Below, piece by piece: positions 3,227-39,508 of a stretch of 64,000 nt of DNA. The stretch is taken from the NCBI GenBank assembly GCA_036004705.1, contig DASYRF010000092.1, positions 12,374 to 76,373 on the forward strand, given 5' to 3'. The number at the start of each line of letters is the position of its first letter. Position 1 is the first letter of the stretch. This DNA is from Myxococcota bacterium (GTDB lineage: Bacteria; Myxococcota_A; Polyangia; DASYRF01). The notes under the pieces were generated by a model. It worked only from the letters and a program-made list of their open reading frames with translations. It searched no databases and was not told where the DNA came from. A program made the position numbers and the translations under genes.

Positions 3227-3345
3227 GGGCCCTCTCCTGGGTACGGCCGCGACAGCCGCGGCGGCGGGCGGGAATGTAGTCAGCGAGAGGGCGGGGGTCA
3301 AGGGGCCGCTTGACGCCGCCCCGGCGAGGCGAGTAATGCGCCGCG

Positions 3346-4068: not shown

Positions 4069-4069
4069 G

Positions 4070-5670: not shown

Positions 5671-6689
5671 TGGCGATTCCCTTCCGGCTGCGGCGCGCCG
5701 AGTGGGTCGCCGGTGCGTTCCTGGTGGCGACGGTGGCCGTCGCGCTGGGGGCGTTCTTCGTCGTCCTTCGCGCGCAGGGCTACTTCGAGCGCCGCTACGA
5801 TTACTATGTCGAGTTCAAGGAGGGGCACGGCATCTCGCCGGGCGGCAACGTGTCCATCGCCGGCATCGTCGCCGGTCAGGTGGAGGAGGTTGCGCTCACG
5901 CCGGAGAACCGCGTGCTGGTGCGCTTCAACGTGCGCGCCCGCTACAGCGACCGGCTGCGCGCCGACTCGGTGGTCGAGGTCGACAGCCCCGTGGGGCTGT
6001 CGGGCGTGCTCGGCGGCAAGGGCATCGTCGTGCAGATCGGCTCGGCGGACGCCGCGCGGCTCGCGCCTGGGGCCCGGCTGAAGGGCGTCGACCCCGAGTC
6101 CATCATGGACCTCATCGCGCGCGTCACCGGCGGGCGCACCGCCGAGGACCTCGAGGCCATCGTCCACAACGTGCGCACGCTCAGCGACTCGCTCGCGGCG
6201 CCCGAAGGGCCGGTCAACCGCCTGCTCGCCGACGCCAGCGACGTCGTCGGCAGCCTGAACCGCGGCGAGGGGTCGGTCGGCAAGCTGCTGCACGACGACG
6301 GCAAGCTCTACGACCGAATGGAGGACGTGGCGACCAACGCCGCGGCGGCATCGGCGCGGCTGGAGCCGCTGCTGGGGCGCGTCGAGGGCGCGGTCAAGAG
6401 CCTGGAGAAGGCGATGGCGCGCGTCGACGCCGCCACCGCGCCGCTCCCGGAGGCCACCGCGGCGCTGCCGGGCATCGCCGCCGACCTGAAGGCGCTGACG
6501 GCGGAGCTGGGTGGCATCGCCGGCGACCTGCACGAAGCGACGCCGATGGTGAAGGAGCTCCTGGGCGAGACCGACCGCGTGCTCGCCGACCTCAGCGACG
6601 TCATCGCCTCGGCGAAACGCTTCTACCTCATCCGTATCAACCTCGACGACGTCCCCGACGGCCCGGTGGCCGACGCGCCGGGGCGCTGA
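5670..6689 (+). CDS. mlaD: MCE/MlaD-family substrate-binding protein
   Basis: ATG 5670 shares one base with the upstream TGA. An N-terminal TM segment (WVAGAFLVATVAVALGAFFVVL) precedes MCE domain YYVEFKEGHGISPGGNVSIAGIVAGQVEEV, followed by a long helical C-terminus. Confidence 0.85.
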   Translation: MAIPFRLRRAEWVAGAFLVATVAVALGAFFVVLRAQGYFERRYDYYVEFKEGHGISPGGNVSIAGIVAGQVEEVALTPENRVLVRFNVRARYSDRLRADSVVEVDSPVGLSGVLGGKGIVVQIGSADAARLAPGARLKGVDPESIMDLIARVTGGRTAEDLEAIVHNVRTLSDSLAAPEGPVNRLLADASDVVGSLNRGEGSVGKLLHDDGKLYDRMEDVATNAAAASARLEPLLGRVEGAVKSLEKAMARVDAATAPLPEATAALPGIAADLKALTAELGGIAGDLHEATPMVKELLGETDRVLADLSDVIASAKRFYLIRINLDDVPDGPVADAPGR

Positions 6690-6690
6690 C

Positions 6691-7707
6691 GTGACGCCGC
6701 GGCGGGCGCGGGCGCAAACGCCGGCGCGGCTGGCGGCGCTGGTGGGAGCGGCCGGCACGGTGGGCGCGGCGCTCGCGGTCGGAAGCGGGGCCTGCGGTCA
6801 CGCCCCCGCCGAGGGGCACGCGTTGCGCGCACACGAGCTGAACATGCAGGGTGTGGCGGCGCTGCGCGCCGGCAACCTGGCGATGGCCGAGACGGCCTTC
6901 GGCAGCGCGCTTCACGAGGCGGAGGCGATCGACGACCGCGCCGCGCGCGTGATGGCGCTCGTGAACCTGGGGCACGTCGACGAGGAGCTGGGCGTTCTGG
7001 GGCGCGCGGTCGGGCGCTACCGCGACGCGGCGGCGCTGGCGCGCGCGCTGGGGGACGTCGCGCTAGAGAGCAGCGCCATCGCCGGCCTTGCGCACGCGCG
7101 CTCGCTGATGGGCGAGCACGACGGCGCGCGCGCGGCGGCGCGCAAGGCGCTGGATCTGGCGGCCGCGACGCGCGCGCGCGCCGCGGTGGCGTCGCGCCGC
7201 GCCGGCCTGGCATTCGTGCTCTGGCGCGCCGGATCCTGCCACGAGGCGGCAGAGGCGCTCGCCGGCGCGACCGACAGAGTGCCGGCCGACGCCGAGGCGG
7301 TGCGCGCGTCGGTGGCCTACGTGGGGGGCCTGGTGGCGCTGGGCCGCGGGCGGCTGGACGAGGCGGCACGCGCGCTGCAGCAGGCGCTGGCGCTCGACCG
7401 CGCGCGCGAGGCGGCGCTCGACACGGGCGACGACCTGCGCGCCCTGGCGCGCGTGGCGCTGGCGCGCGGCGACCGCGCCGCCGCGGCCGACTTCTACGAG
7501 CGCGCGCTGCGGCTGCACGCGGCGCTCGGCGCCTCGCGCCGTACGCTCGTGGATCTGGAGACGCTGGCGCCGCTGCTGCGCGAGGCCGGCCAGGGGGCAC
7601 GCGCCGCCCGCCTGGAGGCGGAAGCGCACGGCCTGCGCGCCGAGATGGCCGCCGAGGCGGCGGGCGTCTGCGAGACCGCGCCGCCGCGCGGTTGCGCAAA
7701 GGAATAA
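6691..7707 (+). CDS. TPR-like repeat lipoprotein, last gene of the Mla-like operon
   Basis: GTG lies 1 nt after the mlaD stop. The signal peptide has Cys (LAVGSGAC). Ala/Leu-rich helical repeats include GNLAMAETAFGSAL and GDRAAAADFYERAL. Confidence 0.65.
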   Translation: MTPRRARAQTPARLAALVGAAGTVGAALAVGSGACGHAPAEGHALRAHELNMQGVAALRAGNLAMAETAFGSALHEAEAIDDRAARVMALVNLGHVDEELGVLGRAVGRYRDAAALARALGDVALESSAIAGLAHARSLMGEHDGARAAARKALDLAAATRARAAVASRRAGLAFVLWRAGSCHEAAEALAGATDRVPADAEAVRASVAYVGGLVALGRGRLDEAARALQQALALDRAREAALDTGDDLRALARVALARGDRAAAADFYERALRLHAALGASRRTLVDLETLAPLLREAGQGARAARLEAEAHGLRAEMAAEAAGVCETAPPRGCAKE

Positions 7708-7788
7708 CGCCTCGAAATTAAGGGCCTTTTGGCGCGCCCAAGGGCGGACGCGCAAAGACCGCTGGCCGGAATGGCGATCCGGCATTAG

Positions 7789-8550
7789 ATGTTGAATGGG
7801 CGCTCCCGGAGGTTCATGCCCGCGACCGAGTCGACCAGCCAGGAAGTTCGCGACAATTGCGTCGACCATCTCGACGCGCTTTACGCGTCCGCGCTACGCC
7901 TGACCAACAGCCCGGTCGAGGCCTCCGATCTGGTGCAAGACACGTACATCAAGGTGCTGCGCTTCTCCGAGAAGTTCCGTCCGGGGACGAACCTGCGCGC
8001 CTGGATGATGAAAATCCTCGTCAACACGTTCATCAACAAGTACCGCCGCAAGACGAAGGAACGGCGCGCGGCGGAGGAATTCGTCGACGAGCCGGTGTAC
8101 GAGAACTTCTATGCGCGCGACGAGCAGCGCCGCGTGACGGACCCGGAGGGCGCCATCTTCGGACGCCTGGTGCGCGCCGACATCCTGCGCGCGCTGGAGT
8201 CGATGCAGCCGGAGTTCCGCGCCACGGTCGTCCTCGCCGACGTCGAGGAGCTCAGCTACCGCGAGATCGCCGAGGCGATGAGCTGCCCGGTCGGGACCGT
8301 GATGTCGCGCCTGTTCCGCGCGCGGCGGCTGCTGCGCGGGTTGCTGCACGACCAGGCCTCCGAGGCAGGCATCGGCGAGGAGGCGGCCGCCCCGGCCGCC
8401 ATGGCCGGGGCGCAGGGGCGCGACGGCGCGGCCGACGGTGCTGCCCCGGACGGCCCCACGATCGACCTGGCGCACTACCGCCGCCGCCGCGCGGCGGGCG
8501 CGTCGGGTGGCACGGGCGGCGCGGCGGGTGACGGCGGAGCGACCCGATGA
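7789..8550 (+). CDS. ECF (sigma-70 family, group 4) RNA polymerase sigma factor
   Basis: Region 2 is DLVQDTYIKVLRFSEKFRPGTNLRAWMMKILVNTFINKYRR. Region 4 is LSYREIAEAMSCPVGTVMSRLFRARRLL. It carries an Ala/Gly-rich C-terminal tail. Confidence 0.9.
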   Translation: MLNGRSRRFMPATESTSQEVRDNCVDHLDALYASALRLTNSPVEASDLVQDTYIKVLRFSEKFRPGTNLRAWMMKILVNTFINKYRRKTKERRAAEEFVDEPVYENFYARDEQRRVTDPEGAIFGRLVRADILRALESMQPEFRATVVLADVEELSYREIAEAMSCPVGTVMSRLFRARRLLRGLLHDQASEAGIGEEAAAPAAMAGAQGRDGAADGAAPDGPTIDLAHYRRRRAAGASGGTGGAAGDGGATR

Positions 8551-9518
8551 CCGGCGAGCGCACGGCCGTGCGTCCCTGTGACGAGCACCGCGAGGACCTT
8601 CACGCCTACCTCGACGGCGAGCTGCAGCTCGCCGAGGCCGCCGCGCTCGAGGACCACCTGCGCGGCTGCGGCGGCTGCCGCGACGAGGTGGCCACGCTGG
8701 GGTCGCTGCGCCGCGCGCTGCGGGTGGCGCTTCCGTCGGTGCGCGCGCCGGCAGAGCTGCGCGCGCGGGTGCGCGCCCTCGTCGACGGCCGCACCGCGCT
8801 GCCGGACGAGCCGCGCGCCCTACCGCCGGCCGCCACGCGCGCCGGGCGCGTGCTGCTGGCCGCCGCCGCGGTGGTGCTGGCCGCGGCCGGGGGTCTGGCG
8901 CTGGCGAGCCGCGTGTTGCCGCACCACGACGGCGACGAGGCGCTGCACCCGACGCCACTGGCGCTCGCGGTGGCGGACTTGCACGACGACGCCGACGAGG
9001 CGGCGCTAGAGGTCGTGGGCCCGGGGAGCGAGCAGGTCGCGGACCTGCTGGAGAGCGGCGCCGGGCTGCCCGGCCACCCGGTGGTGCCCGAAGAAGCGGA
9101 CCTGCTGGGCGCACGGCTGGTGAGCTTCTCGCCCGACGGCGCCGGCACGGGGCCCGGGGCAGGGCACGGCGCGTCGCCTGGCTTGAGCGCCCTGCGCTCG
9201 GTCAGCCGCCGCGGCGCGGTCAAGGGCGGAACGGCCCGCAACGTGGCCATCCCGGCGCGGCGCGGGGAGCTCGCGGGCGAGATGCGCTTGCATCTGGGCA
9301 GCCACCTCGTGACGGTCATCGTCTTCGACGTGCTCGCTACGCCCGTGCACTTCTCGGGAAAGGCCGTGCGCGTCGGCGGGCGCGACGGCTTCGTCGACCG
9401 CGTGGGCGCCACCAACGAGATCTTCTTCGTGGACGGCTTCCTCGGCTACGCCGTGGTGTCCGACGCGCCCCTCGAAATGCTTCTGCACTTCGCCGGCGGG
9501 CTCGTCAGTGTCCACTGA
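8547..9518 (+). CDS. Zinc-binding (ZAS) anti-sigma factor, single-pass membrane protein
   Basis: An ATGA overlap joins it to the sigma gene. H-x3-C-x2-C motif LEDHLRGCGGCRDEV is present, with TM segment VLLAAAAVVLAAAGGLALA. Confidence 0.8.
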   Translation: MTGERTAVRPCDEHREDLHAYLDGELQLAEAAALEDHLRGCGGCRDEVATLGSLRRALRVALPSVRAPAELRARVRALVDGRTALPDEPRALPPAATRAGRVLLAAAAVVLAAAGGLALASRVLPHHDGDEALHPTPLALAVADLHDDADEAALEVVGPGSEQVADLLESGAGLPGHPVVPEEADLLGARLVSFSPDGAGTGPGAGHGASPGLSALRSVSRRGAVKGGTARNVAIPARRGELAGEMRLHLGSHLVTVIVFDVLATPVHFSGKAVRVGGRDGFVDRVGATNEIFFVDGFLGYAVVSDAPLEMLLHFAGGLVSVH

Positions 9519-10119
9519 TCAGACCGCGGGCGGGTCGCCGGTGCGCGCGGCGCGGCGTCCGGGCTGGCCGTACCTGGCCGTGCTCGCCGGCGCGTGGGTC
9601 GTCGCCGACCAGGCGTCGAAGTGGTGGGCCAATCGGTTCCTGGCGCCGCGCCCCGGCGGGCGGCTGGAGCTGGTGTCGGGGCTGTTCGACTTGGACTACG
9701 CGCACAACCCGGGCGCGGCGTGGAGCCTGCTGGTGGGTGCGCCGGCCGGGCTGCGCCGCGCGCTGTTGCTGACTGTCTCGCTGCTGGCCGCGGCGGCGCT
9801 CGTCTGGATGTATCAGCGCCTCGTACACGCGCCGGGCAGCGGCGCGGGGGCGGCGCCGCACCCCCGCCTCATGGCGACGGCGCTGGCGCTGGTGCTGGGC
9901 GGGGCGGCCGGCAACTTCATAGACCGCGCGATCGACGGCTACGTGGTCGACTTCTTCCGCGCGCATTGGTTCGAGGCCGCGAGCTGGCCGACGTTCAACG
10001 TCGCCGACATCGGCATCACGGTGGGTGTGGCGGCGTTGCTCGTGCAGACCTTGTGGAGTGTGCGCCCCGAGGCGCGGGCCGCCGAGGGCGGACCCGGGCA
10101 AAGCCTGCTCGGCGCCTGA
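9508..10119 (+). CDS. lspA: Lipoprotein signal peptidase II (paralog 1)
   Basis: AHNPGAAWSLL, GGAAGNFIDRA, YVVDFF and WPTFNVADIGITVG are present, so both catalytic Asp contexts are retained. The start overlaps the anti-sigma 3' end by 11 nt. Confidence 0.9.
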   Translation: MSTDQTAGGSPVRAARRPGWPYLAVLAGAWVVADQASKWWANRFLAPRPGGRLELVSGLFDLDYAHNPGAAWSLLVGAPAGLRRALLLTVSLLAAAALVWMYQRLVHAPGSGAGAAPHPRLMATALALVLGGAAGNFIDRAIDGYVVDFFRAHWFEAASWPTFNVADIGITVGVAALLVQTLWSVRPEARAAEGGPGQSLLGA

Positions 10120-10240
10120 GCGCGCGCGCGCTTCGCGGCTCGCCGTCTCGGGTCGCTTCGATCTCGCTTCGGTCTCCCGAAACGTGGGCCTCTGGGCCGC
10201 GGCGAAGCGACCCTTGCATCCATGATGCATAATCCCCTTC

Positions 10241-11575
10241 GTGTGGAAGCGACGGCGCGGGGGAGTGCTGGCGCTGGCGGCCGCGTCGCTCGCGACCGCT
10301 CCCGCGACGGCAAGCGCGGCCGAACCGCCGCCACGGGTGTCCTTCAGCTGGAAGGCGCCGAAGGAGTGCCCGGACGAAGCCTACGTGCGCGGCGAGATCG
10401 AGCGCCTGCTGCGGCGCCCGCTGGAGGCCGCGGCGCGCGAGCCGCTGGCCGCGCGCGCGCGCGTGTCGCGCGACAAGCGCGGCGTGTGGCACATGAAGCT
10501 CGACACCAAAGGCCCCGCCGGGCCGGGCGAGCGCACGCTCGAGGGCGACACGTGCGAGGGCCTGGGCCGCGCGACCGCGCTCATCGTGGCGCTTGCCATC
10601 GACCCGGCAGCCGTGGCCGAGGCCACGACGGGCAGCGCGGGGACCTCACTCATCGGCCTCGCTGCCGGAAGCGCGGGCGCCGATGGTGCCGGGGGTGGGC
10701 GCGCCGGCGCGGCCGGCGCGGCCGGCGAAGCCGCAACCGGGGGCGGCGACGGCGGAGCGGGAGGCACGGGAGGCACGGGTGGTACGACCGTCGGCGCCGG
10801 AGACAGTGGCGCGCGCGGGGTCGCCGCAACGCCAGGCGGCAAAGGCGCTGCAGGGGCGGAGACTGGGCGCGGCGCGGCGACCGGCACGCCGGGCGCGGCG
10901 GGCGCGACCGCCGGAGCGACTGGCCCGACCGCAGCGCCGGACGCGCCGGCCGGCGCCGGTGCGATCGGTCGCGTCGAGACGGACACGGAGGCTCCCTCCG
11001 GCGCGACCTTGGCCGTACGGATCGCCGACGACGCGCCGCTGCGGTTGCTCGCGCGAGTCACGGCGGGCGGGGACTTCGGGACGCTGCCGCACCTCGCTCC
11101 CGGCGGGTCTGTGGCGGTGGGCCTGCTGACGGGAACGACGCGCGTCGAGGTGGTCGGCTCCTACTGGCTGCCGCAGCGGGGCCGCCTCGCCGGCAGCGAC
11201 ACCGTCTACGGGACGATCCGCCTTTACGCCGCCGGGCTACGCGGCTGCGCCGGCCTCCACCTTGGCGCCTTCGACCTGCCGGCGTGCTTCGGCGCCGAGG
11301 TCGGACGCCTCTACGGGAAGGGTCACGGGGTCTCGACCGTGGCGGACGGTGACGCCCTGTGGCTGGCCGCCACAGCCGGAGCCGCGGTGGCCTGGAACCT
11401 GGCACCCTGGCTCGCTCTTTGGCTCCAGGCCGACGCGGTCGCTCCGCTCTTGCGCCCCGAGTTCGTCTTCGACAGTGTGGCCGGCACACCCTGTACCGCG
11501 AGCGGGTGCCCCATCTGGCGGCCCTTGCCCGTGTCGGCGCGCGCCGCCGCCGGGGTCGAGCTACACTTTCCGTGA
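10241..11575 (+). CDS. Secreted protein: conserved N-domain, Gly/Ala/Thr low-complexity linker, beta-rich C-terminal domain
   Basis: The signal peptide is LALAAASLATAPATASA. GC3 is high. The C-terminus alternates hydrophobic residues and ends in VELHFP, so it may be barrel-like. No recognisable catalytic motif. Confidence 0.6.
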   Translation: MWKRRRGGVLALAAASLATAPATASAAEPPPRVSFSWKAPKECPDEAYVRGEIERLLRRPLEAAAREPLAARARVSRDKRGVWHMKLDTKGPAGPGERTLEGDTCEGLGRATALIVALAIDPAAVAEATTGSAGTSLIGLAAGSAGADGAGGGRAGAAGAAGEAATGGGDGGAGGTGGTGGTTVGAGDSGARGVAATPGGKGAAGAETGRGAATGTPGAAGATAGATGPTAAPDAPAGAGAIGRVETDTEAPSGATLAVRIADDAPLRLLARVTAGGDFGTLPHLAPGGSVAVGLLTGTTRVEVVGSYWLPQRGRLAGSDTVYGTIRLYAAGLRGCAGLHLGAFDLPACFGAEVGRLYGKGHGVSTVADGDALWLAATAGAAVAWNLAPWLALWLQADAVAPLLRPEFVFDSVAGTPCTASGCPIWRPLPVSARAAAGVELHFP

Positions 11576-12195
11576 TGAAGGCCGTCGCCGCCGGCCACTC
11601 AACGGACGTGGGAACGAACCCCAGCGCGGGTGCCGTGGCGCTTCGCCCGGGATCGGACGCCCCGGCCGCCAGGATGACCGCCCCCGGCTTCGCTGCCGTG
11701 TACGAGCAGAACTTCGACTTCGTGTGGCGCAGCCTGCGGCGCCTGGGAGTGCCCGAGGCAAGCATGGACGACGCCGCGCAGGACCTGTTCATCGTGGTGC
11801 ACCGCCGCCTCGGGGAGTTCGCCGGCCGCTCGTCGGTGCGCACGTGGCTCTTCGGCATCGCGCTGCGCGTGGCCGGGGACTACCGCCGCCGCCTGCGCCG
11901 TAAGGGCACACCGCTGCGGCCGCTGCCCGACGCGCTGCCCGACACCACGCGGCCAGGACCCTACGAGGATCTGGCGCGCCGCGAAGCCGCGCGCGTGCTG
12001 GACGGGCTGCTCGACGCGCTGGACGACGCCAAGCGCGCTGTCTTCGTGCTGGCCGAGCTGGAGCAGATGACCGCGCCGGAGATCGCGGAGGTTCTGGACG
12101 TGAACGTCAACACGGTGTACTCGCGCCTGCGTGCAGCACGCGCGGACTTCGAGCGCGCGGTGGCCCGCCTGCAGTCGCGCAGCGGAGGGAGGTGA
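11575..12195 (+). CDS. ECF sigma factor (second copy)
   Basis: AAQDLFIVVHRRLGEFAGRSSVRTWLFGIALRVAGDYRR is region 2. TAPEIAEVLDVNVNTVYSRLRAARADF is region 4. ATG 11575 overlaps the preceding TGA; the alternative start is ATG 11674. Confidence 0.85.
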   Translation: MKAVAAGHSTDVGTNPSAGAVALRPGSDAPAARMTAPGFAAVYEQNFDFVWRSLRRLGVPEASMDDAAQDLFIVVHRRLGEFAGRSSVRTWLFGIALRVAGDYRRRLRRKGTPLRPLPDALPDTTRPGPYEDLARREAARVLDGLLDALDDAKRAVFVLAELEQMTAPEIAEVLDVNVNTVYSRLRAARADFERAVARLQSRSGGR

Positions 12196-12196
12196 C

Positions 12197-13195
12197 ATGG
12201 ACGCGCTCTCTCCGAAGGCACGAGCGATCCTGGACGCCGCACGCGCCGCGCACGAGGCGACCGGCGACGATCGCGGCCGTGTGCGCGCCGCGCTGCTCGC
12301 CAGCCTCGGCAGCGTACCGCCGGCGTCGGGCGCGCCGCCCGCCGCGGGCACGCCCGCCCCGCCCGTGGCACCGGCCGCGCCGGCCTCAGGCGCCGGGGCC
12401 GGCGCGGGGACGGGGACGGCGGCGGTGGGCGCGACGCTGTCGGGCGGCCACGCCGCCATCGGGACCGCCGCGGTCGGCGCCATGATCGTCAAGGTGTCCG
12501 TCGGCGCGGCGCTGCTGCTGGGCGCCGCCACGGCGCTCCTGATTCTCGGCCCTGGCGAAAAGGCGCGTCCCGCCGCGGAGACAGCCACCGAGCCTGCCGG
12601 CGGGACCGCGACCGCGCCGGGCGGGGAATCCGCCCCCGTCTCCCGCGCGGAAATCGCGCCTTCGCGGGTCGCGGAGCCGTCCTCTCCGCCGCTGATACTG
12701 CCGCCGCCCCGCGCCGAGGAACGCCTGGCGCGGGTGCCGCTCGACGACCTGCCTTCGCCGGCCGTGTCCTCGGCGCCGCCGCCGCCCATGGCGCCGGGGA
12801 CGCCCGCCGCCCCCGCCGCGCCCCGGGCAACGCCCCGCCATGCGGCCGCCGGCGCCGGCGCCACCGTCGCTGCCGCAGCCCCCCTGGCGACGTCGAGCGC
12901 CTCGACGCTGGACGCGGAAACGGTGCTCCTCAACGGCGCCAGCGCCGCGCTCGGCGCCAAAGACGCGGCCCACGCCCTCGCGCTGCTGGAGGATTACGCC
13001 CGCCGCTTCCCGCACGGCGTGCTGGCCGAGGAAATGATGGCCACGCGCGTGCTGGCGCTCTGCGCGCTCGGCCGCGCCGGCGAGGCACGCGCCGCCGCGG
13101 AGGCCTTCCTCGCCACGCGCCCGCGCTCGCCCTACGCGGCGCGCGTGCGCGCGAGCTGCGGAGCCGCCCCGGCCGCCCCCGCGCCGGCGCCGTGA
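12197..13195 (+). CDS. Single-pass membrane protein, probable cognate anti-sigma/partner with Pro/Ala-rich linker and TPR-like C-terminal domain
   Basis: ATG 12197 lies 2 nt after the sigma stop, with GGAGGGAGG upstream. The TM segment is VGAMIVKVSVGAALLLGAATALLIL. The C-terminus contains ALALLEDYARRFPHGVLAEEMMATRVLALCALGR. Confidence 0.6.
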   Translation: MDALSPKARAILDAARAAHEATGDDRGRVRAALLASLGSVPPASGAPPAAGTPAPPVAPAAPASGAGAGAGTGTAAVGATLSGGHAAIGTAAVGAMIVKVSVGAALLLGAATALLILGPGEKARPAAETATEPAGGTATAPGGESAPVSRAEIAPSRVAEPSSPPLILPPPRAEERLARVPLDDLPSPAVSSAPPPPMAPGTPAAPAAPRATPRHAAAGAGATVAAAAPLATSSASTLDAETVLLNGASAALGAKDAAHALALLEDYARRFPHGVLAEEMMATRVLALCALGRAGEARAAAEAFLATRPRSPYAARVRASCGAAPAAPAPAP

Positions 13196-14559
13196 TGCCC
13201 GCGCGGCACACGCACCGCCCTTCTCGGTGGCGCGCCGCCGCCACTCTCCTCGCCGGCGCGACCGCTCTCGGCGGCGCCTCCTGCATCCACGAAAACTACG
13301 GCCGCACCATTCACCTCGGCAGCGATCCGACGCAGTGCAACGACGCAATGGACGACGACGGCGACCTGCTCGTCGACGCCGCCGACCCCGGCTGCCAGGG
13401 TACGAGCGACGACGGCGAGAACGAGCGCACCGAGATCGCGCCCTACACGCCGGCGCACGCCGCCACTGTCCTGTTCGTGATCGACGACTCCGGCTCCATG
13501 TGTGAGGAGCAGACCAACCTGCGAACGAACTTCGAGTCGTTCATCACGGCGTTCCTCGGCGCGGCCCCGGGCGTGCCGTACCATCTGGGCGTCGTCACCA
13601 CCGACACGTCCAGCGTCTCCGTGGCGGGCCGGCTGCGCAACTCGCCCCAGACCGTCGTCGCCAGCCCGCTCTGCCCGACACCGCCGCCGCCGCTCGACTG
13701 CACCACCGGCCTCCCATCGCCGCTGCCGAAGTGGATCGACCCGACCACGCCTGAGCCCGCCCGCACGTTCGGCTGCCTCGCCTCGGTCGGCATCATGGGC
13801 TTCGGCGGCGAGACGGCGCTCGGCGCCGCCGACATGGCCTTCAGCCCCACGCTTGTGAACGACCCTACGGCGAACCAGGGCTTCTACATCCCTGAGTCGC
13901 TGGTGGCGATCGTCTTCCTGGGCGACGAGGACGACTGCTCGGTCTGCTTCGGGACGGCGTGCGCGCCGCTTCCCGGGCTGCAGTTCAACCTGGACTGCTC
14001 GATCAACCGCGTGACCGAGCTGACAGCGGTCAGCTACATCGTCGCCGAAGTCACAGGGAGCTCGAACCTGGCCGGCGGCACGTTTGCGCGCGACGGCGTC
14101 TACGTTTCGGCCATCATCGGCCTCGACCCCGACGGCAACAGCGACGGCCCCATCATGGCCGATCCCGGCGGCGCCGACAGCCTGGTGCCCATCTGCTCGA
14201 TCGCCGGACAAGGCGGAGCCGCGCCCGCCCCGCGCATCGACAGCTTCACCCGCTCGTTCGCGCTCCATGAGGAGCACTCCATCTGCGACACCGACTACGG
14301 CCCCGCGCTGGGCGCGCTGGGCGGCGCGCTCGCCACGATGCTCAATTCCGGCTGCCTGGGCGCACCACCCTGCGACGGCATCAGCACCGCCGACGTCGTC
14401 GTGCAGATCGGCGGCGCACCGCCGCTCGGCGCCGGGGACTTCGACATCGTCCCCGACGCCGGCTGTGCCGGCGGATGGCGCGTGGAGCTGGCTGTCCCCG
14501 CCGACGCCGGCACGACCCTCTCCGTCACCTACCCCGAGGGCGCCGGCCCCTGCCCTTGA
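13192..14559 (+). CDS. VWA-domain lipoprotein with one N-terminal CxDxxDDDGD module
   Basis: The signal has Cys (ALGGASC). Module CNDAMDDDGDLLVDAADPGC is present. VLFVIDDSGSM is a MIDAS DxSxS motif. The start overlaps the upstream stop (GTGATG). Confidence 0.75.
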   Translation: MMPARHTHRPSRWRAAATLLAGATALGGASCIHENYGRTIHLGSDPTQCNDAMDDDGDLLVDAADPGCQGTSDDGENERTEIAPYTPAHAATVLFVIDDSGSMCEEQTNLRTNFESFITAFLGAAPGVPYHLGVVTTDTSSVSVAGRLRNSPQTVVASPLCPTPPPPLDCTTGLPSPLPKWIDPTTPEPARTFGCLASVGIMGFGGETALGAADMAFSPTLVNDPTANQGFYIPESLVAIVFLGDEDDCSVCFGTACAPLPGLQFNLDCSINRVTELTAVSYIVAEVTGSSNLAGGTFARDGVYVSAIIGLDPDGNSDGPIMADPGGADSLVPICSIAGQGGAAPAPRIDSFTRSFALHEEHSICDTDYGPALGALGGALATMLNSGCLGAPPCDGISTADVVVQIGGAPPLGAGDFDIVPDAGCAGGWRVELAVPADAGTTLSVTYPEGAGPCP

Positions 14560-14635
14560 CAGGGGGGCCTGCACCGCCCAGGATGTTCGCCTTTTGGCGG
14601 ACCGGCCGCGCCCTGGCGGCGTCCGATGGAGAGAG

Positions 14636-15274
14636 ATGGCCGCCACCCGACGCAAGTGGGGGTACCTCGGCGCAGTGACCGGCCTGCTGGTCCTGACCGA
14701 CCAGCTCACCAAGTACTGGGCCGTGAGCTCCCTGCGCCCCAAGCCGGGCGGCAAGCTCACCGTCTTCAAGGGCCTGCTCGATCTGAGCTACGTGCAGAAC
14801 ACCGGGGCGGCGTGGGGCTTCCTGGGCGGGGCCCCGGCCTGGTTCCGTCGGCCCTTCTTCCTGGTCGTGTCGCTGGCGGCCGTCGCCTTCATCGTCTGGA
14901 TCTACCGCAAGATCGAGCGCGGCCAGTGGCTGCTGGCCACCGCGCTGGCGAGCGTGCTGGGCGGAGCGGTCGGCAACTTCGTCGATCGTGCCATCCACGG
15001 CTACGTCATCGACTTCATCGACGCACACTGGTTCGACGGACCACACTGGCCCACGTTCAACGTCGCCGACATCGGCATCTCGGTGGGCGTGGTGGCGCTC
15101 TTCGTCGAGATGTTCCTCGGCGCGCGCCGCGCGCGCGAGGGTGAGGCGGAGGACGGCGCCGCCACCGCCACGCCCGGCAACGCCGCCCCGATGCCGTCCG
15201 CCCCTGCCGTCCGGGGCACGCCGGCCGGCGAGCGCGCCGGCGCCGCCGCTCCGCGCGGCTCGGAGTCGAAGTAA
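14636..15274 (+). CDS. lspA: Lipoprotein signal peptidase II (paralog 2)
   Basis: The true start is ATG 14636 (MAATRRKWGYL). VQNTGAAWGFL, GGAVGNFVDRA, YVIDFIDAH and WPTFNVADIGISVG are present. The track ORF 14084 start adds junk. Confidence 0.9.
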   Translation: MAATRRKWGYLGAVTGLLVLTDQLTKYWAVSSLRPKPGGKLTVFKGLLDLSYVQNTGAAWGFLGGAPAWFRRPFFLVVSLAAVAFIVWIYRKIERGQWLLATALASVLGGAVGNFVDRAIHGYVIDFIDAHWFDGPHWPTFNVADIGISVGVVALFVEMFLGARRAREGEAEDGAATATPGNAAPMPSAPAVRGTPAGERAGAAAPRGSESK

Positions 15275-15326
15275 CGGCGCGCCGCAGCGGTCGCAGGCTT
15301 CCCCCAAGCGTGCAAGACTAGCGGCC

Positions 15327-16619
15327 ATGCCGGACTCCGCCACGTCGCCCACGCCCGAGCCAGCGGACCCGGCGGCGGACGAGAAGGCCAGCGCGGCGGC
15401 GTCGCCCGGCGCGCCCGCGACGGCCGGCACGGGCGCCGGAGAAGCCGCCGGCGACGCCAAGAGCGACATGCGCGCCATCGGCCCGCTCGCCGAGCAGGAG
15501 CGCGCGCTGGAGCAGAAGCTGTCTCGCCCGGCGCTGCGACGCGCGGTGTGGGCCGTGGGCGCCGCCGCCGCGCTTGCCTTCCTCGCCTACGCGCTCGCCA
15601 ACCCGGGCAAGGCGGTGCTCGTCGACGTCCTCATCCCCGTCGTGAACGTGCGGTTCGCCTTGCCGTCGTACTTCACGATGCTGGTGCTCGGCTTCATGGT
15701 CGCCATCTACATGACCTGGAAGCTCGCCCCCGAGGTGTGGCCGGACCGCGACGACGCGCCCGACCGCATGCTCGACTTCAATCTATTGATGCTGGTGACC
15801 GGCGTTCTGGGCGCGCGGGCCATGCACGTCATCGCCGATGGCTTCTTCTGGGACTACGTTCATCTGTGCACGAACCCGGCGCTGGTGGACTTGAAAGTGG
15901 ACGTCGCCCTGGCGCCGGCGGTGAAAGCAGCCCGCTGCGCGAACCTCGGCGGCGTGCTCGACGCCGGCGGCGTCTGCCGCCCCTCCGAGTCCGACTGTCT
16001 GGCCACGCTGAAGATCTGGAACGGCGGCCTGGCCTGGTACGGCGGGCTCCTGGCGTGCATCCCAGTGGCCTGGTGGTACCAACGCCGCTACAGGCTCGGG
16101 TGGCTGAAGCTGGCGGACCTGTCATCGCCGTTCATCGCGCTGGGGCTCTTCTTCGGACGCATGGGCTGCTGGATGAGCGGCTGCTGCTTCGGGCAGCCGA
16201 CGGACGTGGCGTGGGCGGTGCGCTTCCCGCCCAACAGCGCGGCGTCGTGGGAGCAGAACGAGGACGGGCTGCTGCCGTCACGGCTGCTGGAGTCGCTTCC
16301 GGTCCACCCCACGCAGCTCTATGAGGCGTTCGCATCGCTGGCGCTGGCGGCGTACCTGTACTTCTGGGTTCGCAAGCACAAGCGGTTCGACGGGCAGGAG
16401 TTCTTCTCCTTGCTGGCGCTGTACGGCCTCATCCGCTTCTTCGTGGAGATGGTGCGCGCCGACGACCGCGGCACGGTCCTGGGTCTGCTCTCGTCGTCGC
16501 AGGCGATCAGCCTTCCGCTCGTGGCGCTGGGAATCTTCTTCCTGTACCGCAACGGCAAGCGCGCCGAGGCGGCGGCGCGCGGCGGCGGCGGCGGCGCGGC
16601 GGCGGCAGTCGGCCCGTAG
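15327..16619 (+). CDS. lgt: Prolipoprotein diacylglyceryl transferase (paralog 1, with N-terminal extension and Cys-containing periplasmic insert)
   Basis: WNGGLAWYGGL, FGRMGCWMSGCCFGQPT, VHPTQLYEA and LIRFFVEMVRADDRG are Lgt blocks. ATG 15327 is the start; a later start (MRAIGP, about 15468) is possible. Confidence 0.85.
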   Translation: MPDSATSPTPEPADPAADEKASAAASPGAPATAGTGAGEAAGDAKSDMRAIGPLAEQERALEQKLSRPALRRAVWAVGAAAALAFLAYALANPGKAVLVDVLIPVVNVRFALPSYFTMLVLGFMVAIYMTWKLAPEVWPDRDDAPDRMLDFNLLMLVTGVLGARAMHVIADGFFWDYVHLCTNPALVDLKVDVALAPAVKAARCANLGGVLDAGGVCRPSESDCLATLKIWNGGLAWYGGLLACIPVAWWYQRRYRLGWLKLADLSSPFIALGLFFGRMGCWMSGCCFGQPTDVAWAVRFPPNSAASWEQNEDGLLPSRLLESLPVHPTQLYEAFASLALAAYLYFWVRKHKRFDGQEFFSLLALYGLIRFFVEMVRADDRGTVLGLLSSSQAISLPLVALGIFFLYRNGKRAEAAARGGGGGAAAAVGP

Positions 16620-16630
16620 CACGCCCGGCC

Positions 16631-17473
16631 GTGCATCCCGTCCTGCTGCGCCTCGGTCCGCTTGAGATTCCGAGCTACGGCGCGCTCTCGGCGACTGGCA
16701 TGCTGCTGGCAACTTGGCTCTCGGTCCGCGCCGGCCGCCGCGCCGGCGTGCCCGTGCCGGCGATGCTCGACCTCATGTTCTGGCTGCTCGTCGCCGGGCT
16801 GGCCGGCTCGTGGGCGTTGCACGTCGCGCTGAACGCGCCGGCCCTGTGGCGGCTGTGCCGCGAGGCGGGCGACTGCCTGGCCGCGGTCGACCCGCGGCGC
16901 GCCGGCTTCGTCTGGTACGGCGGCGCGCTCGCCGCCGCGGCCGCGCTGTGGGCGTTCGCCCGGCGGCGCCGTCTCAATGTCTGGCGGCTGGGCGACGTGC
17001 TCGCCCCCGGGGCCGCCATCGGACAGGCGCTCGGGCGGCTCGGCTGCTGGGCGGCCGGCTGCTGCTACGGCGCGCCGTGCGCCGTCCCGCCCGGCGTGCG
17101 CTTCCCCCCGGGCAGCTTGGCCTGGCTCGAAGCCGTCGACGCCGGGCGGCTCGCTCCCGGGGCGCCGGCCACCGTGCCGCTCTACCCCGTACAGCTCTGG
17201 GAAGCGGCCGGCAACGCGGTTCTGTTCGGCGCGCTCCTGGCGCTGCGCGCGCGCAAACGGTTCGACGGGCAAGTGCTGTGCGCCTACGCGCTCGGCTACG
17301 CGGCGCTCCGCTTCGGACTGGAGCTCGTCCGCGGCGACGCGCGCGGCGGAGTGGGACCGCTATCCACTTCGCAGCTCGTCGCGGTGGCCGTGGCCGTGGC
17401 CGCCGCCGCCGCCTGGTGGCGTCGCAGCCGGAGCCCAGCCGCCGCGGCAGTGCCGGGCCCGCGGCCCGCCTAA
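16631..17473 (+). CDS. lgt: Prolipoprotein diacylglyceryl transferase (paralog 2)
   Basis: IPSYGALSATGML, FVWYGGAL, LGRLGCWAAGCCYGAPC, LYPVQLWEA and LRFGLELVRGDARG are present. It lies 11 nt after lgt paralog 1. Confidence 0.85.
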   Translation: MHPVLLRLGPLEIPSYGALSATGMLLATWLSVRAGRRAGVPVPAMLDLMFWLLVAGLAGSWALHVALNAPALWRLCREAGDCLAAVDPRRAGFVWYGGALAAAAALWAFARRRRLNVWRLGDVLAPGAAIGQALGRLGCWAAGCCYGAPCAVPPGVRFPPGSLAWLEAVDAGRLAPGAPATVPLYPVQLWEAAGNAVLFGALLALRARKRFDGQVLCAYALGYAALRFGLELVRGDARGGVGPLSTSQLVAVAVAVAAAAAWWRRSRSPAAAAVPGPRPA

Positions 17474-17474
17474 G

Positions 17475-17924
17475 CTAGGGCTGCACCGTGAAGAAGACGC
17501 CGTTCGAGACGACGCCGTCGACCTCGATGACCAGCGCGACGGTGCCGGGATCCACGGCCGGGACGGCGACGGTCACGTAGCCGTCGCTGTAGAGGCTGGC
17601 ATCGATGGCGGCCTCGACGCCGCCGAAGAGCACGCGCGTCACCGCCGCGTCGGTGCCGAAGCCCGCGCCGCGCAGCTCGACGGCCGCGCCGGGCGCCGCC
17701 GCGTTCGGCACCACCGCCGCGATGGACGGCTCGTCAGGCACCGCAGGCGTCTCGTCGCAGCCCGCGTCCCCCAGGGCGACGAGCGCCAGGACGGCGGCGA
17801 GGGTCAGCAGAGGAGGGAGCGCCAGGCCACGCGCGCGCGCACGACCGCGACGCGAGGCGACGGCGGCGACGGCCGCGGCACTGGCGGCGGCGTGAGACGA
17901 CGACGACGGCGACCGGCGCAACAT
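17475..17924 (-). CDS. Small secreted/lipoprotein with IPT/TIG-like Ig fold
   Basis: The signal has Cys (LVALGDAGC). VVPNAAAPGAAVELRGAGFG...VLFGGVEA...GYVTVAVPAVDPGTVALVIEVDGVVSNGVFFTV is an IPT/TIG-like pattern. Confidence 0.65.
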   Translation of the reverse strand: MLRRSPSSSSHAAASAAAVAAVASRRGRARARGLALPPLLTLAAVLALVALGDAGCDETPAVPDEPSIAAVVPNAAAPGAAVELRGAGFGTDAAVTRVLFGGVEAAIDASLYSDGYVTVAVPAVDPGTVALVIEVDGVVSNGVFFTVQP

Positions 17925-17928
17925 CGGA

Positions 17929-18921
17929 CTACAGGAAGAACCGCAGCGTCACGGCGAACGTATCGCCGTCCGTCTTGGTGCCCGGCGTCGACGGCGCCGG
18001 CCCCGCCACGCGTCGCTTGTAACCCGCGTCCAGCGCGAAGCTCTCACTCACGTAGGCCGCCCCGCCGCTCACCCAGTGGCCCCAGCCGAATCCACCCGCG
18101 CCGTCGGGCTCGGCGCCGTTCAGCTCGTACCCGGCGCGCAGCGCCAGCGCCCCGAAGAGGAACACTTCCGCTCCCGCGTGCACGCTGTGCGTGACCCTGT
18201 TCGCGGTCGTGAAGTCCATGACGTAGTCCACCGTCCCGAGCACGATGCCGCCCACGCCCACGCCGATGCCCGCGCGCACGTCCGTCGGCATGTCGGGCTC
18301 TCGGGGCAGCGTCAGGTTGCGCCCCGTCAAGCCGAACGAGATCGAGTCGGAGAAGGCGACGAGCAGCCCGGCGTCCACCGCGTACTTCTTGTAGTCGTCG
18401 GGGCCGAGGTCGTCGTTCTTCGGCTCCATCACGCCGCGCGGGTCCAGCCGCCGCGTCACCAGCTTGTTCATCACCCCGAAGAAGATGCGGTCGGTGAGCG
18501 GATACGACAGCGCGAAGCGCACGTCATAGCCGTTGCGCACCATCTCCTCGCCCGTCCCGGCGTCCGTGATGCGCGAGTTCAGGTAGCTCACTTCCAGGCC
18601 GCCGCCGACCTTGGAGCTCTTCGAGTCGACGATCGACAGGAAGGGACTGTGGCTGTGCAGGTCGAACGAGTAGGCGTAGCCCAGCTCGATGGAGTACTTC
18701 GCACCCCAAGAGATGCCGGCCGGGTTGAAGAACATTGCGCCGTTGTCGTTCGCGATCGCGACGTGCGCGCCGCCCATCGCCAGCGCGCGCGGGCCGACCA
18801 GCTCGTCCTCGTAGGTGCCGGCGCGCGCCTCCACCGCCACCCCCGCCAGCACGCAGAAAGTCGCGAGCGCCCCGGCGGCCCGTCCCAGCGTTGCACTCGT
18901 GTGATCGCGCAGCACAGACAC
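17929..18921 (-). CDS. Outer-membrane beta-barrel protein (FadL/PorV-like)
   Basis: A signal peptide is present. GPRALAMGGAHVAIANDNGAMFFNPAG is the N-terminal motif of OM transport barrels. Beta strands alternate, and the C-terminus is aromatic (VTLRFFL). Confidence 0.7.
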   Translation of the reverse strand: MSVLRDHTSATLGRAAGALATFCVLAGVAVEARAGTYEDELVGPRALAMGGAHVAIANDNGAMFFNPAGISWGAKYSIELGYAYSFDLHSHSPFLSIVDSKSSKVGGGLEVSYLNSRITDAGTGEEMVRNGYDVRFALSYPLTDRIFFGVMNKLVTRRLDPRGVMEPKNDDLGPDDYKKYAVDAGLLVAFSDSISFGLTGRNLTLPREPDMPTDVRAGIGVGVGGIVLGTVDYVMDFTTANRVTHSVHAGAEVFLFGALALRAGYELNGAEPDGAGGFGWGHWVSGGAAYVSESFALDAGYKRRVAGPAPSTPGTKTDGDTFAVTLRFFL

Positions 18922-18930
18922 CTTGGCTCG

Positions 18931-18958
18931 ACGCTAGCACGCACGCCCGGCGAGTCAA
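18931..18958 (-). promoter_or_regulatory. Candidate sigma-70-type promoter of the OM-barrel operon
   Basis: On the minus strand: TTGACT (18958-18953), 16 nt, TGC-TAGCGT (extended -10, 18939-18931), 9 nt, GTG start at 18921. There is no SD, so the mRNA would be near-leaderless. Confidence 0.4.
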
Positions 18959-19004
18959 TTTCTCCCTTCCGGCGGGCCGCGCCAAGCCATGCCGGGCGGC
19001 GGGG

Positions 19005-20597
19005 TCACGCGTAGGGGAGCGTCACCACGAACTGCGCCCCGCGGCCGGGCGCGTCCTCGTAGCGGATCGCCCCGCCGTGGTCGGCGACGATCTGGCGGCT
19101 CATCCACAGCCCGAGCCCCGTGGCGTCCGCGACGCCGCCCTTGCCGAAAGGCTCGAACAGCTGCGCGCGCAGGGCCGGCGGCACGGCCGCGCCGGTCCCG
19201 CCCACCACCACCTCCACGCCCGCGCCCGCCGCCTCGGGCCGGACCAGCACCCAGATGCGCCCCTCCTGCACCTCCTCCGCGGCCTGCCGGACGTTGGCCA
19301 ACAGGTTGCGCAGCGCCTGCACGAGGTCCGGCGCGGACCCCAGCACCTTTGCGCCCGCCGCCCCGAGCACCGCCTCCACCTGAACGCGCTCCTCCAGCTC
19401 GCGCCGCATCGTGCGCAGCGTCTCGCTCACCAGCTCCTGCAGGTCGACGCGCGTGCGCTCGCCGCGCCCCCCGTTCCACAGGACTTGCAGCTTCTGCACC
19501 ACCGCCTGGATCCGGCGCGCGCCTTCGCGGCAGTCGGCCAGCAGCTCCGCGTCGTCCGGCTCGGCGTGTGCGCACTCGCGCGGGCGCATCGCCTCCAGGC
19601 TCGCCAGCAAGAACGACAGCGGGTTGTTCACCTCGTGCGCCACCGCCTCGGCGAGCTGCGCCACCGCCGCCATGCGCTCCGCCTCGACGACGCGCTTCTC
19701 CACGATACGCAGCGTCTTGCGTGCACGCCCCAGCGCGCGCGCTTGCGTGTCCAGCTCCGCCTCCAGCTCGCGCTTGCTGTGCTGGAACGCGCGCCGCTCC
19801 GCGACCGCCGCCAGCCCCGCCGCGACGTGCGCCGCCAGGCTCTCGGCCACGCCGCGGGCCGCCTGGTCGAAAGGCGGGGCGCGCCCATCGAGCCGCAGGA
19901 TCATCGCCCCGACGGACCGGCCGGCGTGCACCAGAGGCACCTGCATGACGCGACCGTGCGAGCCGCGCACCACGCTGGGCGCCGTCTGCGCCGCGGCCCC
20001 CGACAGGTCTTCGGTGGACTCGTCGCGTGGCCCCAGCACCAGATCGCCGTCGTGGTCGCGGTGCGCGGCGGCCACTACCTCCGCGCCCAGGGCGTCGCGC
20101 AGCAGCTGCCGGCCGTGCGCCAGCAGCCGCGCCGGCTCCTCTGCCGCGGTCACCGCCACGCCCAGGTGATAGAGCGACGCCAGCACGTCGGCGCGCCGCG
20201 ACTCGGCGACGCCCGCCGCCACGACGTGGCCGAGCACCGGAGCGCCCTGCATGAGCGCCGTATTGGTTCGTTCGTCCGGCGCGTCGCCGGCGCGCCCCGC
20301 GCCGCGCGCCGCGCGCACCTCGACGAGCGTGGAGCCGAAGACGACGACGTCGCCCACCTTCAGCCGCGCCTGCCGTACGCGCGCCCCGGCGACGAACGTG
20401 CCGTTGCGGCTGCCGAGGTCGTCCACGTCGAGCCCGTTCTCCGCCGGACGCAGGCGCGCGTGCTGCGCCGACACCTCTGGATCGGGAAGGACCAGCCCCG
20501 CCTGCTCGGTCCGGCCCACCACGAGCCCGGCGCCCGGAACGCGCACGCTGGCGCCGGCGCGTAGCCCCGTGCAGACCATGATCTCGTAGCGGTTCAC
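19005..20597 (-). CDS. FHA-domain sensor histidine kinase (FHA + GAF-like + HisKA + HATPase_c)
   Basis: FHA is VVGRTEQAGLVLPDPEVSAQHARL...DLGSRNGTFV. The H-box is AHEVNNPLSFL. The N box is LRNLLANV, and the G box is TGLGLWMSRQIVADHGGAI. Confidence 0.85.
   Translation of the reverse strand: MNRYEIMVCTGLRAGASVRVPGAGLVVGRTEQAGLVLPDPEVSAQHARLRPAENGLDVDDLGSRNGTFVAGARVRQARLKVGDVVVFGSTLVEVRAARGAGRAGDAPDERTNTALMQGAPVLGHVVAAGVAESRRADVLASLYHLGVAVTAAEEPARLLAHGRQLLRDALGAEVVAAAHRDHDGDLVLGPRDESTEDLSGAAAQTAPSVVRGSHGRVMQVPLVHAGRSVGAMILRLDGRAPPFDQAARGVAESLAAHVAAGLAAVAERRAFQHSKRELEAELDTQARALGRARKTLRIVEKRVVEAERMAAVAQLAEAVAHEVNNPLSFLLASLEAMRPRECAHAEPDDAELLADCREGARRIQAVVQKLQVLWNGGRGERTRVDLQELVSETLRTMRRELEERVQVEAVLGAAGAKVLGSAPDLVQALRNLLANVRQAAEEVQEGRIWVLVRPEAAGAGVEVVVGGTGAAVPPALRAQLFEPFGKGGVADATGLGLWMSRQIVADHGGAIRYEDAPGRGAQFVVTLPYA

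Positions 20598-36235: not shown

Positions 36236-39508
<3,273 letters not shown>

Follow-up and report, generated by a model that had tools for sequence, protein, structure and literature searches.

A signal peptidase II gene coupled to a SigH/SigR-like ECF sigma/anti-sigma pair, and a candidate for stress induction, beside a putative housekeeping lspA-lgt-lgt operon in a Myxococcota bacterium

More than one intact lspA gene linked to lgt has been described in Myxococcus xanthus, where, by the account of a review, a tandem lspA1-lspA2 pair resides in an operon with lgt and forms the housekeeping set (PMC8689077). Further lspA copies with conserved catalytic residues, namely lspA3 and lspA4 of the M. 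xanthus myxovirescin (TA) cluster and globF of the globomycin cluster, lie within polyketide synthase (PKS) and nonribosomal peptide synthetase (NRPS) clusters. Mycobacterium smegmatis carries two homologues of lgt, MSMEG_3222 and MSMEG_5408, for which redundancy is presumed (PMC11741404). Among regulatory systems, SigR-RsrA of Streptomyces and SigH-RshA of Mycobacterium each combine a SigH-like sigma factor, an anti-sigma factor with an HxxxCxxC motif and a promoter of the form GGAAT-N18-GTT, with the sigma and anti-sigma genes co-transcribed. Here we describe a locus at positions 7816-17473 of a 64,000-nucleotide stretch (hereafter the window) of Myxococcota bacterium contig DASYRF010000092.1 (assembly GCA_036004705.1), from an uncultured bacterium encountered in several samples, in which ten co-directional genes encode two LspA and two Lgt paralogues together with two extracytoplasmic function (ECF) sigma factors. 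The reading we favour, to which we assign somewhat better than even confidence, is that a stress-inducible spare LspA, LspA-1, lies beside an ordinary lspA-lgt-lgt operon, and that the run consists of three adjacent co-directional units rather than one module.

The locus differs from each of the systems described above. Unlike the M. xanthus lspA1-lspA2-lgt operon, its lspA copies are not in tandem but are separated by four genes, including that for the second ECF sigma factor; a sigma/anti-sigma pair is coupled to one lspA, and lgt is present in two copies. The lspA3, lspA4 and globF genes have a biosynthetic setting, whereas the context of LspA-1 is regulatory. The lgt homologues of M. smegmatis have distant locus numbers and are not described as neighbours, whereas the two Lgt types in the window are adjacent and co-oriented, and their tandem is conserved across lineages. 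In contrast to the soluble RsrA and RshA, the anti-sigma factor of the window is anchored in the membrane and has ~200 amino acids of extracytoplasmic domain, and its host is a myxobacterium. To our knowledge, no lspA has been reported in the known SigR-RsrA or SigH-RshA operons. What appears to be new is that a SigH/SigR-like ECF operon with a zinc-binding anti-sigma (ZAS) factor has captured one lspA copy; duplications of lspA and lgt are of a known kind and are common in the clade.

In the mechanism that we propose, unit 1 (7768-10119) would comprise an autoregulated sigma-1, a zinc-binding anti-sigma factor that holds it at the membrane, and LspA-1. Inactivation of the anti-sigma factor by an envelope or thiol signal would release sigma-1, the free sigma factor would transcribe its own operon from GGAATG-N17-GTT, and the LspA-1 so produced would increase signal peptidase II capacity. 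Unit 2 (10241-14559) would be a further ECF module that includes a secreted protein, a membrane protein and a lipoprotein, and its link to unit 3 is positional. Unit 3 (14556-17473) would provide constitutive expression of lspA-2, lgt-1 and lgt-2 from its own sigma-70-type promoter. The features of the locus are as follows.

7768..7793, + strand: SigH/SigR-type ECF promoter motif GGAATG-N17-GTT, before sigma-1 (consensus match)
7816..8550, + strand: ECF sigma-1, SigH/SigR-like, 244 amino acids (Sigma70_r2, 1.4e-15; r4_2, 6.9e-15; TIGR02937)
8547..9518, + strand: membrane-anchored ZAS anti-sigma factor, 323 amino acids (zf-HC2, 5e-9; HLRGCGGC)
9508..10119, + strand: LspA-1, putative accessory signal peptidase II, 203 amino acids (Peptidase_A8, 1.4e-35)
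10241..11575, + strand: secreted protein, 444 amino acids, with an alternative start at 10265 (signal-peptide-like N-terminus)
11575..12195, + strand: ECF sigma-2, 206 amino acids, start at 11572 or 11575 (Pfam r2 and r4_2; TIGR02937)
12197..13195, + strand: single-pass membrane protein, 332 amino acids, presumed sigma-2 partner (one transmembrane helix)
13195..14559, + strand: predicted lipoprotein, 454 amino acids, with a possible VWA/MIDAS domain (LGGAS-C lipobox)
14556..14584, + strand: sigma-70-type promoter motif TTGACA-N17-CAGGAT, before lspA-2/lgt-1/lgt-2 (consensus match, kept in the relative L090)
14636..15274, + strand: LspA-2, putative housekeeping signal peptidase II, 212 amino acids (Peptidase_A8, 2.4e-40)
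15327..16619, + strand: Lgt-1, prolipoprotein diacylglyceryl transferase, 430 amino acids (LGT, 7e-55)
16631..17473, + strand: Lgt-2, second, anciently diverged Lgt paralogue, 280 amino acids (LGT, 2e-49)

At the G+C content of the window (~73-75%), genes were called via third-position G+C (GC3) and then checked against Pfam and NCBIfam, with family matches judged against curated bit-score cutoffs. The GC3 frame plot and the family matches show that the ten genes fill 7816-17473, and they agree in gene order, strand and junctions with an earlier model-made annotation of this DNA, the sequence-only reading. Two of its start codons required revision. That of LspA-2 was corrected to ATG 14636, and sigma-1, which had been started at 7789, begins instead at ATG 7816, since the promoter motif reaches into the 7789 region, its -10 element overlapping 7789 itself; the downstream ATG is preceded by a GGAGG ribosome-binding site and agrees with the JGI call. 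The sigma-1 and anti-sigma genes share an ATGA overlap (8547-8550), and the lspA-1 start overlaps the anti-sigma stop by 11 nucleotides, or follows it by a gap of 22 nucleotides if GTG 9541 is the start. The sigma-2 start overlaps the stop of the gene for the 444-residue protein, and the remaining junctions are overlaps of 1-4 nucleotides and gaps of 121, 76, 52 and 11 nucleotides.

The regulatory half of unit 1 has close parallels in the actinobacterial systems. Both sigma factors of the locus match regions r2 and r4_2 only, which places them among the ECF (group 4) sigma factors, and both exceed the TIGR02937 cutoff of 42.9 bits (82.1 bits for sigma-1, 74.6 bits for sigma-2), with 28% identity between them. 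The top NCBIfam family for sigma-1 is TIGR02947 (SigH_actino; 1.9e-47); unlike SigR and SigH, however, sigma-1 falls below the cutoff of this model (161 against 251.55 bits) and hence outside the SigH family as the model delimits it. The anti-sigma factor carries the motif H-x3-C-x2-C as HLRGCGGC and one predicted transmembrane helix (residues 95-113). Its C-terminal domain has no family match, even in Pfam at E values up to 10, and no orthologue of the protein was found in the fetched loci or the protein database. The zf-HC2 match, the HLRGCGGC motif, the ATGA coupling and the motif at 7768-7793 together point to a ZAS anti-sigma factor coupled to its sigma factor behind a promoter of the GGAAT-N18-GTT type.

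The SigR consensus is GGAATN18GTT (PMC2375139), and the consensus or optimum for SigH is GGAAYR-N17-GTT (PMC4803200). The sequence GGAATG-N17-GTT at 7768-7793, which lies 23 nucleotides before ATG 7816, is an exact match to both. The window holds two motifs of this type, where 0.82 would be expected over the two strands, and the chance of finding one on the correct strand within the 110-nucleotide gap before sigma-1 is estimated at ~1e-3. None was found before the other genes of the cluster. The second match in the window, GGAAT-N19-GTT at 39380-39406 (+), lies ~210 nucleotides upstream of a hydantoinase/5-oxoprolinase gene (39617-43111); judged by this motif, the gene is a possible further target of sigma-1, with a thiol/glutathione flavour. 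We infer the induction of lspA-1 by sigma-1 as well as the nature of the signal, and an inducible LspA is a reasonable proposal because lspA-1 is operon-coupled to a sigma/anti-sigma pair with an ECF promoter.

The product of the captured gene retains the features of a signal peptidase II. LspA-1 exceeds the cutoffs of PF01252 (123 bits) and TIGR00077 (92.0 bits; cutoff 73.95), and LspA-2, with 138.5 and 115.9 bits, respectively, likewise surpasses the equivalog cutoff. A set of 14 conserved LspA residues has been defined on the Staphylococcus aureus enzyme (PMC6952399), and all 14 are present in both copies. Thirteen of these positions, including D124 and D143, were assigned via alignment to Pseudomonas aeruginosa LspA (5DIR), and the aspartate of GNxxDR was read directly from GNF(I/V)DR. 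The GNxxDR and FNxAD contexts to which the sequence-only reading had pointed are conserved in both copies, but the GNxxDR aspartate is not catalytic: the catalytic aspartates of both copies sit in V(V/I)DF and FNVAD, corresponding to a D148/D167 dyad in LspA-1.

LspA-1 and LspA-2 are 52% identical. Among 5.8 billion proteins, the top non-self match of LspA-1 (50%) is the LspA-2 orthologue of a close relative, L090, and no closer LspA-1 orthologue was found among these proteins or in the fetched loci. We read LspA-1, from these comparisons, as a probable lineage-specific, faster-diverging duplicate of LspA-2. The retention of the 14 residues and of a native GC3 (0.93) despite this divergence argues for purifying selection on LspA-1, and the protein is probably enzymatically active, judging from its sequence. 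Two other readings of LspA-1, a pseudogene and a horizontal acquisition, were considered and rejected in view of its native GC3, its full set of conserved residues and LspA-2 as its nearest relative.

The two Lgt proteins, which are 34% identical, are ancient paralogues whose tandem has been kept in many related lineages. Both greatly exceed the PF01790 cutoff of 24.9 bits (Lgt-1, 186.4; Lgt-2, 168.6), and neither reaches the TIGR00544 equivalog cutoff of 118.9 bits (112.7 and 84.3, respectively), which fits their divergence from the canonical model. In Escherichia coli numbering, Y26, R143, G154, Y235, R239 and E243 are kept in both proteins and in 11 relatives, and R143 and R239 are essential in the E. 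coli enzyme (PMC4728403). Residues H103, N146 and E151 of E. coli are replaced by Y, C and C in both copies, and in E. coli the H103Y variant fails to complement (PMC4728403). All three exchanges are also found in the lspA-adjacent lgt genes of Sandaracinus, Polyangiaceae and other relatives, and because these genes share them, the GRxGCxxxGCCxG block is best viewed as a clade-wide functional variant rather than as a mark of inactivation; the cysteines may substitute within the Lgt signature motif. The view of the sequence-only reading that all four enzymes look competent agrees with the retention of catalytic residues in LspA-1, LspA-2, Lgt-1 and Lgt-2. Members of the Lgt-1 clade also share a periplasmic insert in which four cysteines (C181, C204, C217 and C224) are invariant, and the Lgt-1 proteins of the window and of L090 are longer by ~100 residues at the N-terminus, where a further transmembrane helix is predicted.

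The distribution of these genes in relatives suggests which copies are the housekeeping ones. In Polyangia-type genomes, among them Sandaracinus sp., Polyangiaceae and one genome of 9.07 Mb, the lgt located after lspA, often near ileS, encodes a homologue of Lgt-1 with 46-52% identity, and ileS-lspA-lgt or lspA-lgt is the standard arrangement among the sampled relatives. In neighbour-joining trees built from short alignments, Lgt-1 falls in one clade with the lspA-adjacent lgt of Sandaracinus and Polyangiaceae (94% bootstrap). Lgt-2 lies outside this clade, where it is accompanied by the lgt in second place in other tandems and by the lgt beside ileS-lspA in an Anaeromyxobacteraceae-like lineage; in some lineages either type is the sole lgt at the lspA locus. 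Phylogenies, a check that the sequence-only reading had proposed, place Lgt-1 in the lspA-linked clade and suggest that LspA-1 is the extra copy.

A metagenome scan with an alignment of the Lgt-1 clade provided 80 Lgt-1-type loci for analysis. The lspA gene is directly upstream in 71 of the 80, and six of the other nine end at a contig edge. In at least 13 of these loci an Lgt-2-type gene comes after the Lgt-1-type gene, and the order ileS-lspA-lspA-lgt-lgt is found in at least three (L099, L132 and L167), all from uncultured lineages of 68-70% GC. The two lspA copies of L132, like those of L167, are sister paralogues, whereas those of L099 come from separate clades, which indicates that lspA has been duplicated repeatedly. 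A distant lineage, L087, has ileS-lspA-lgt-lgt. These operons resemble the locus in gene families and in order, with Lgt-1 preceding Lgt-2, but they follow ileS and have no ECF sigma gene nearby, whereas the window has ECF modules, and no ileS was found from ~17 kb upstream to 50 kb downstream. The presence of at least 13 lgt tandems and at least three double-lspA loci identifies two lspA and two lgt genes as a recurring, ileS-linked arrangement. The premise that one copy of each gene normally suffices does not hold in this clade, where duplicated lgt and lspA genes beside ileS are common, and M. xanthus has its lspA tandem (PMC8689077).

The close relative L090 keeps the lspA-lgt-lgt trio at 81, 79 and 58% identity, respectively, and with it the second half of the cluster (membrane partner, small open reading frame, lspA, lgt, lgt); the C-terminal 103 residues of the 332-residue protein of the window are 56% identical to the product of the reading frame upstream of the L090 lspA. 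An ECF sigma gene upstream of lgt is absent from all 44 related loci whose flank on that side extends for 4 kb or more. As a negative control, 80 unrelated lspA loci (distant, low-GC and non-Myxococcota) from a contig scan with LspA-2 were inspected, and none has an ECF sigma gene within 10 kb.

The TTGACA-N17-CAGGAT sequence lies in the 76-nucleotide gap before lspA-2. Sites of this type occur twice in the window against 0.34 expected, the other one being also intergenic. At the equivalent position L090 has TTGACA-N17-CACGAT, and because the hexamers are kept while the spacer has diverged, this phylogenetic footprint points to a real lspA-2 promoter. The site was spotted by eye and then tested, the hexamer rule of the generic scan having missed it; that scan of promoters and terminators returned no sigma-70 promoter, and terminators no more often than expected by chance. 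From their sequences, we infer that the two motifs, before sigma-1 and before lspA-2, act as promoters. The conserved promoter of its own and the grouping of Lgt-1 with lspA-adjacent lgt genes argue that the trio is an ordinary rather than an accessory operon. On this comparative evidence, lspA-2, lgt-1 and lgt-2 would be the housekeeping operon of the lineage, with orthologues that follow ileS elsewhere in Myxococcota.

Several observations weigh against the division into three units and against a spare, inducible LspA-1. The tree joins LspA-1 to the pair formed by LspA-2 and its L090 orthologue through a weak branch (51% bootstrap). The counts of lspA and lgt copies cover the window and its flanks, and extra genomic copies are possible. 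Conservation of synteny in relatives, which the sequence-only reading had set as a test, applies to the second half of the cluster, kept in L090; no counterpart of the sigma-1/anti-sigma/lspA-1 unit was found in the fetched loci. The adjacency of units 2 and 3 is itself preserved in L090, and the search for intrinsic terminators gave none between the units; given both, read-through from sigma-2 into lspA-2 and the lgt genes is possible. Finally, both promoters are assigned as consensus matches.

Among the alternatives, we find it unlikely that the paralogues are redundant neutral duplicates and that the two-ECF neighbourhood is a historical accident without regulatory consequence. Myxococcota encode very many ECF sigma factors, which makes chance adjacency plausible, lspA and lgt have been duplicated repeatedly in these lineages, and the ECF linkage is not conserved beyond this one. 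The coupling of lspA-1 to the anti-sigma gene is nevertheless tight (the 11-nucleotide overlap or a gap of at most 22 nucleotides), its position downstream of a perfect ECF promoter motif makes co-expression hard to avoid, and neutrality accords poorly with a protein that has kept the 14 conserved residues and a GC3 of 0.93 at 52% identity to LspA-2.

We rate no more highly the proposal that LspA-1 confers resistance to LspA inhibitors such as myxovirescin and globomycin, whether as self-resistance of a producer or as inducible target amplification against competitors, by analogy with lspA3/lspA4 of M. xanthus or globF of Streptomyces. Such a role would suit LspA-1 as an additional copy that is intact, has separate regulation and has diverged faster. 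The known resistance copies of lspA, however, sit within biosynthetic clusters, whereas no PKS, NRPS or other biosynthetic genes were found from ~17 kb upstream to 50 kb downstream, and PKS/NRPS domains were absent from the 64-kb window, 10 kb of left flank and ~3.5 kb of right flank. The resistance to LspA inhibitors that the sequence-only reading had raised thus finds, as self-resistance, no accompanying cluster within these bounds, and the conserved inhibitor-contacting residues are all unchanged in LspA-1. The competitor-defence variant of this proposal, which overlaps with the stress-inducible spare LspA that we favour, is possible. A more specific and, in our view, doubtful extension is that sigma-1 and its anti-sigma factor form a surveillance loop for lipoprotein maturation, in which the membrane anti-sigma factor would sense a block of signal peptidase II and release sigma-1, so that spare LspA is made. 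The trigger could be, for example, a build-up of unprocessed diacylglyceryl-prolipoproteins at the inner membrane or a competitor's antibiotic directed at LspA, and the spare enzyme, if less sensitive, could provide inducible resistance to LspA inhibitors by target replacement or amplification.

That the whole ten-gene run is a single inducible, possibly substrate-dedicated module in which both ECF sigma factors drive all LspA and Lgt under envelope stress is equally doubtful. In its favour, the run is co-directional throughout, its widest gap measures 121 nucleotides and no intrinsic terminator was detected in it; the membrane-partner/lspA adjacency is conserved in L090; and the run includes a lipoprotein gene, with Mla genes and the gene for a TPR lipoprotein just upstream. 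Against it, the lspA-2/lgt-1/lgt-2 trio has its own conserved sigma-70-type promoter and is orthologous to ileS-linked operons that lack ECF genes (none in the 44 loci with 4 kb or more of upstream sequence), the sigma-1 motif is absent before the other cluster genes, and Lgt-1 groups with the lspA-adjacent lgt of the sampled loci of relatives. Of the inducible or dedicated module originally suggested, what stands is the coupling of LspA-1 to sigma-1, but not the inclusion of lspA-2, lgt-1 and lgt-2, which have their own promoter and ECF-free orthologues.

Both LspA and Lgt are targets of antibiotics, and the buffering of the lipoprotein pathway against stress is only partly known. If the three-unit interpretation is correct, a sigma-controlled spare LspA would be a simple, testable example of a stress-inducible back-up for an essential envelope enzyme, and possibly a way to acquire inducible tolerance of drugs of the globomycin or myxovirescin type. 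The survey of relatives, in which uncultured Myxococcota-like lineages routinely keep two Lgt types, and at times two LspA, after ileS, is useful background wherever accessory function is inferred from copy number. Most features that the sequence-only reading had flagged are ordinary for this clade.

Unit 2 contains the less familiar components. The 444-residue protein has a signal-peptide-like N-terminus and a Gly/Ala-rich linker, and it matches no Pfam or NCBIfam family, Pfam at E values up to 10 included. In the gap before it (10119-10241) no convincing ECF motif was found that could serve as a sigma-2-type promoter, only repeats and a palindrome: tandem TCGCTTCG(A/G)TC repeats and, just 5′ of the start codon for the 444-residue protein, the palindrome TGCATCCATGATGCA; these may be regulator binding sites. 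The 332-residue protein has one predicted transmembrane helix (residues 100-118), weak YfiO/BamD-like matches and a periplasmic TPR-like C-terminal domain. It matches no anti-sigma family in Pfam (at E values up to 10) or NCBIfam, and is presumed to be the anti-sigma factor of sigma-2 from its gene position and single-pass topology.

The 454-residue protein bears an N-terminal …LGGAS-C lipobox, in keeping with its earlier description as a VWA lipoprotein, but the VWA assignment stems from a DDSGSM (DxSxS) motif and sub-threshold matches to VWA_2 (E = 0.011; 16.8 bits against a cutoff of 27) and to a MIDAS adhesin (3.6e-4). A single-sequence AlphaFold2 model of the protein has a predicted local distance difference test score (pLDDT) of 33.9, too low for use. 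Where at least seven lipoproteins had been counted in the window, a strict lipobox scan of the gene set yields three candidates; relaxed criteria would raise this number, for example by the TPR protein at 6691-7707. A 1090-residue predicted lipoprotein with an …LAVAGC lipobox and without any Pfam match is encoded at 36236-39508 (-). No lnt was found in the cluster, as had been noted, nor anywhere in the window or from ~17 kb upstream to 50 kb downstream.

The surroundings of the cluster gave no matches in Rfam and tRNA scans of the window. The co-directional run begins before sigma-1, with genes for GGDEF, MlaE, MlaF, MlaD and TPR proteins at 3346-7707. Those directly 5′ of sigma-1, at 4070-7707 (+), encode MlaE, an ABC ATPase, MlaD and the TPR protein, which has a lipoprotein-like N-terminus (…AVGSGAC), and the location of the Mla and TPR genes indicates that the wider neighbourhood is oriented toward the envelope and lipid transport. 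On the other side, convergent genes at 17475-20597 (-) encode a TIG-domain protein, a 330-residue protein without an assigned family and an FHA-GAF-histidine kinase, with one nucleotide between the lgt-2 stop and the neighbouring stop. TIG and response-regulator genes occupy the equivalent position in L090 and on the contig of P0123. An AhpC/TSA peroxiredoxin gene lies near the cluster at 2774-3421 (-), and AhpC/TSA genes are also found near the ileS-lspA-lgt genes of L082 and L084, a shared neighbourhood that may be a remnant of ancestral synteny.

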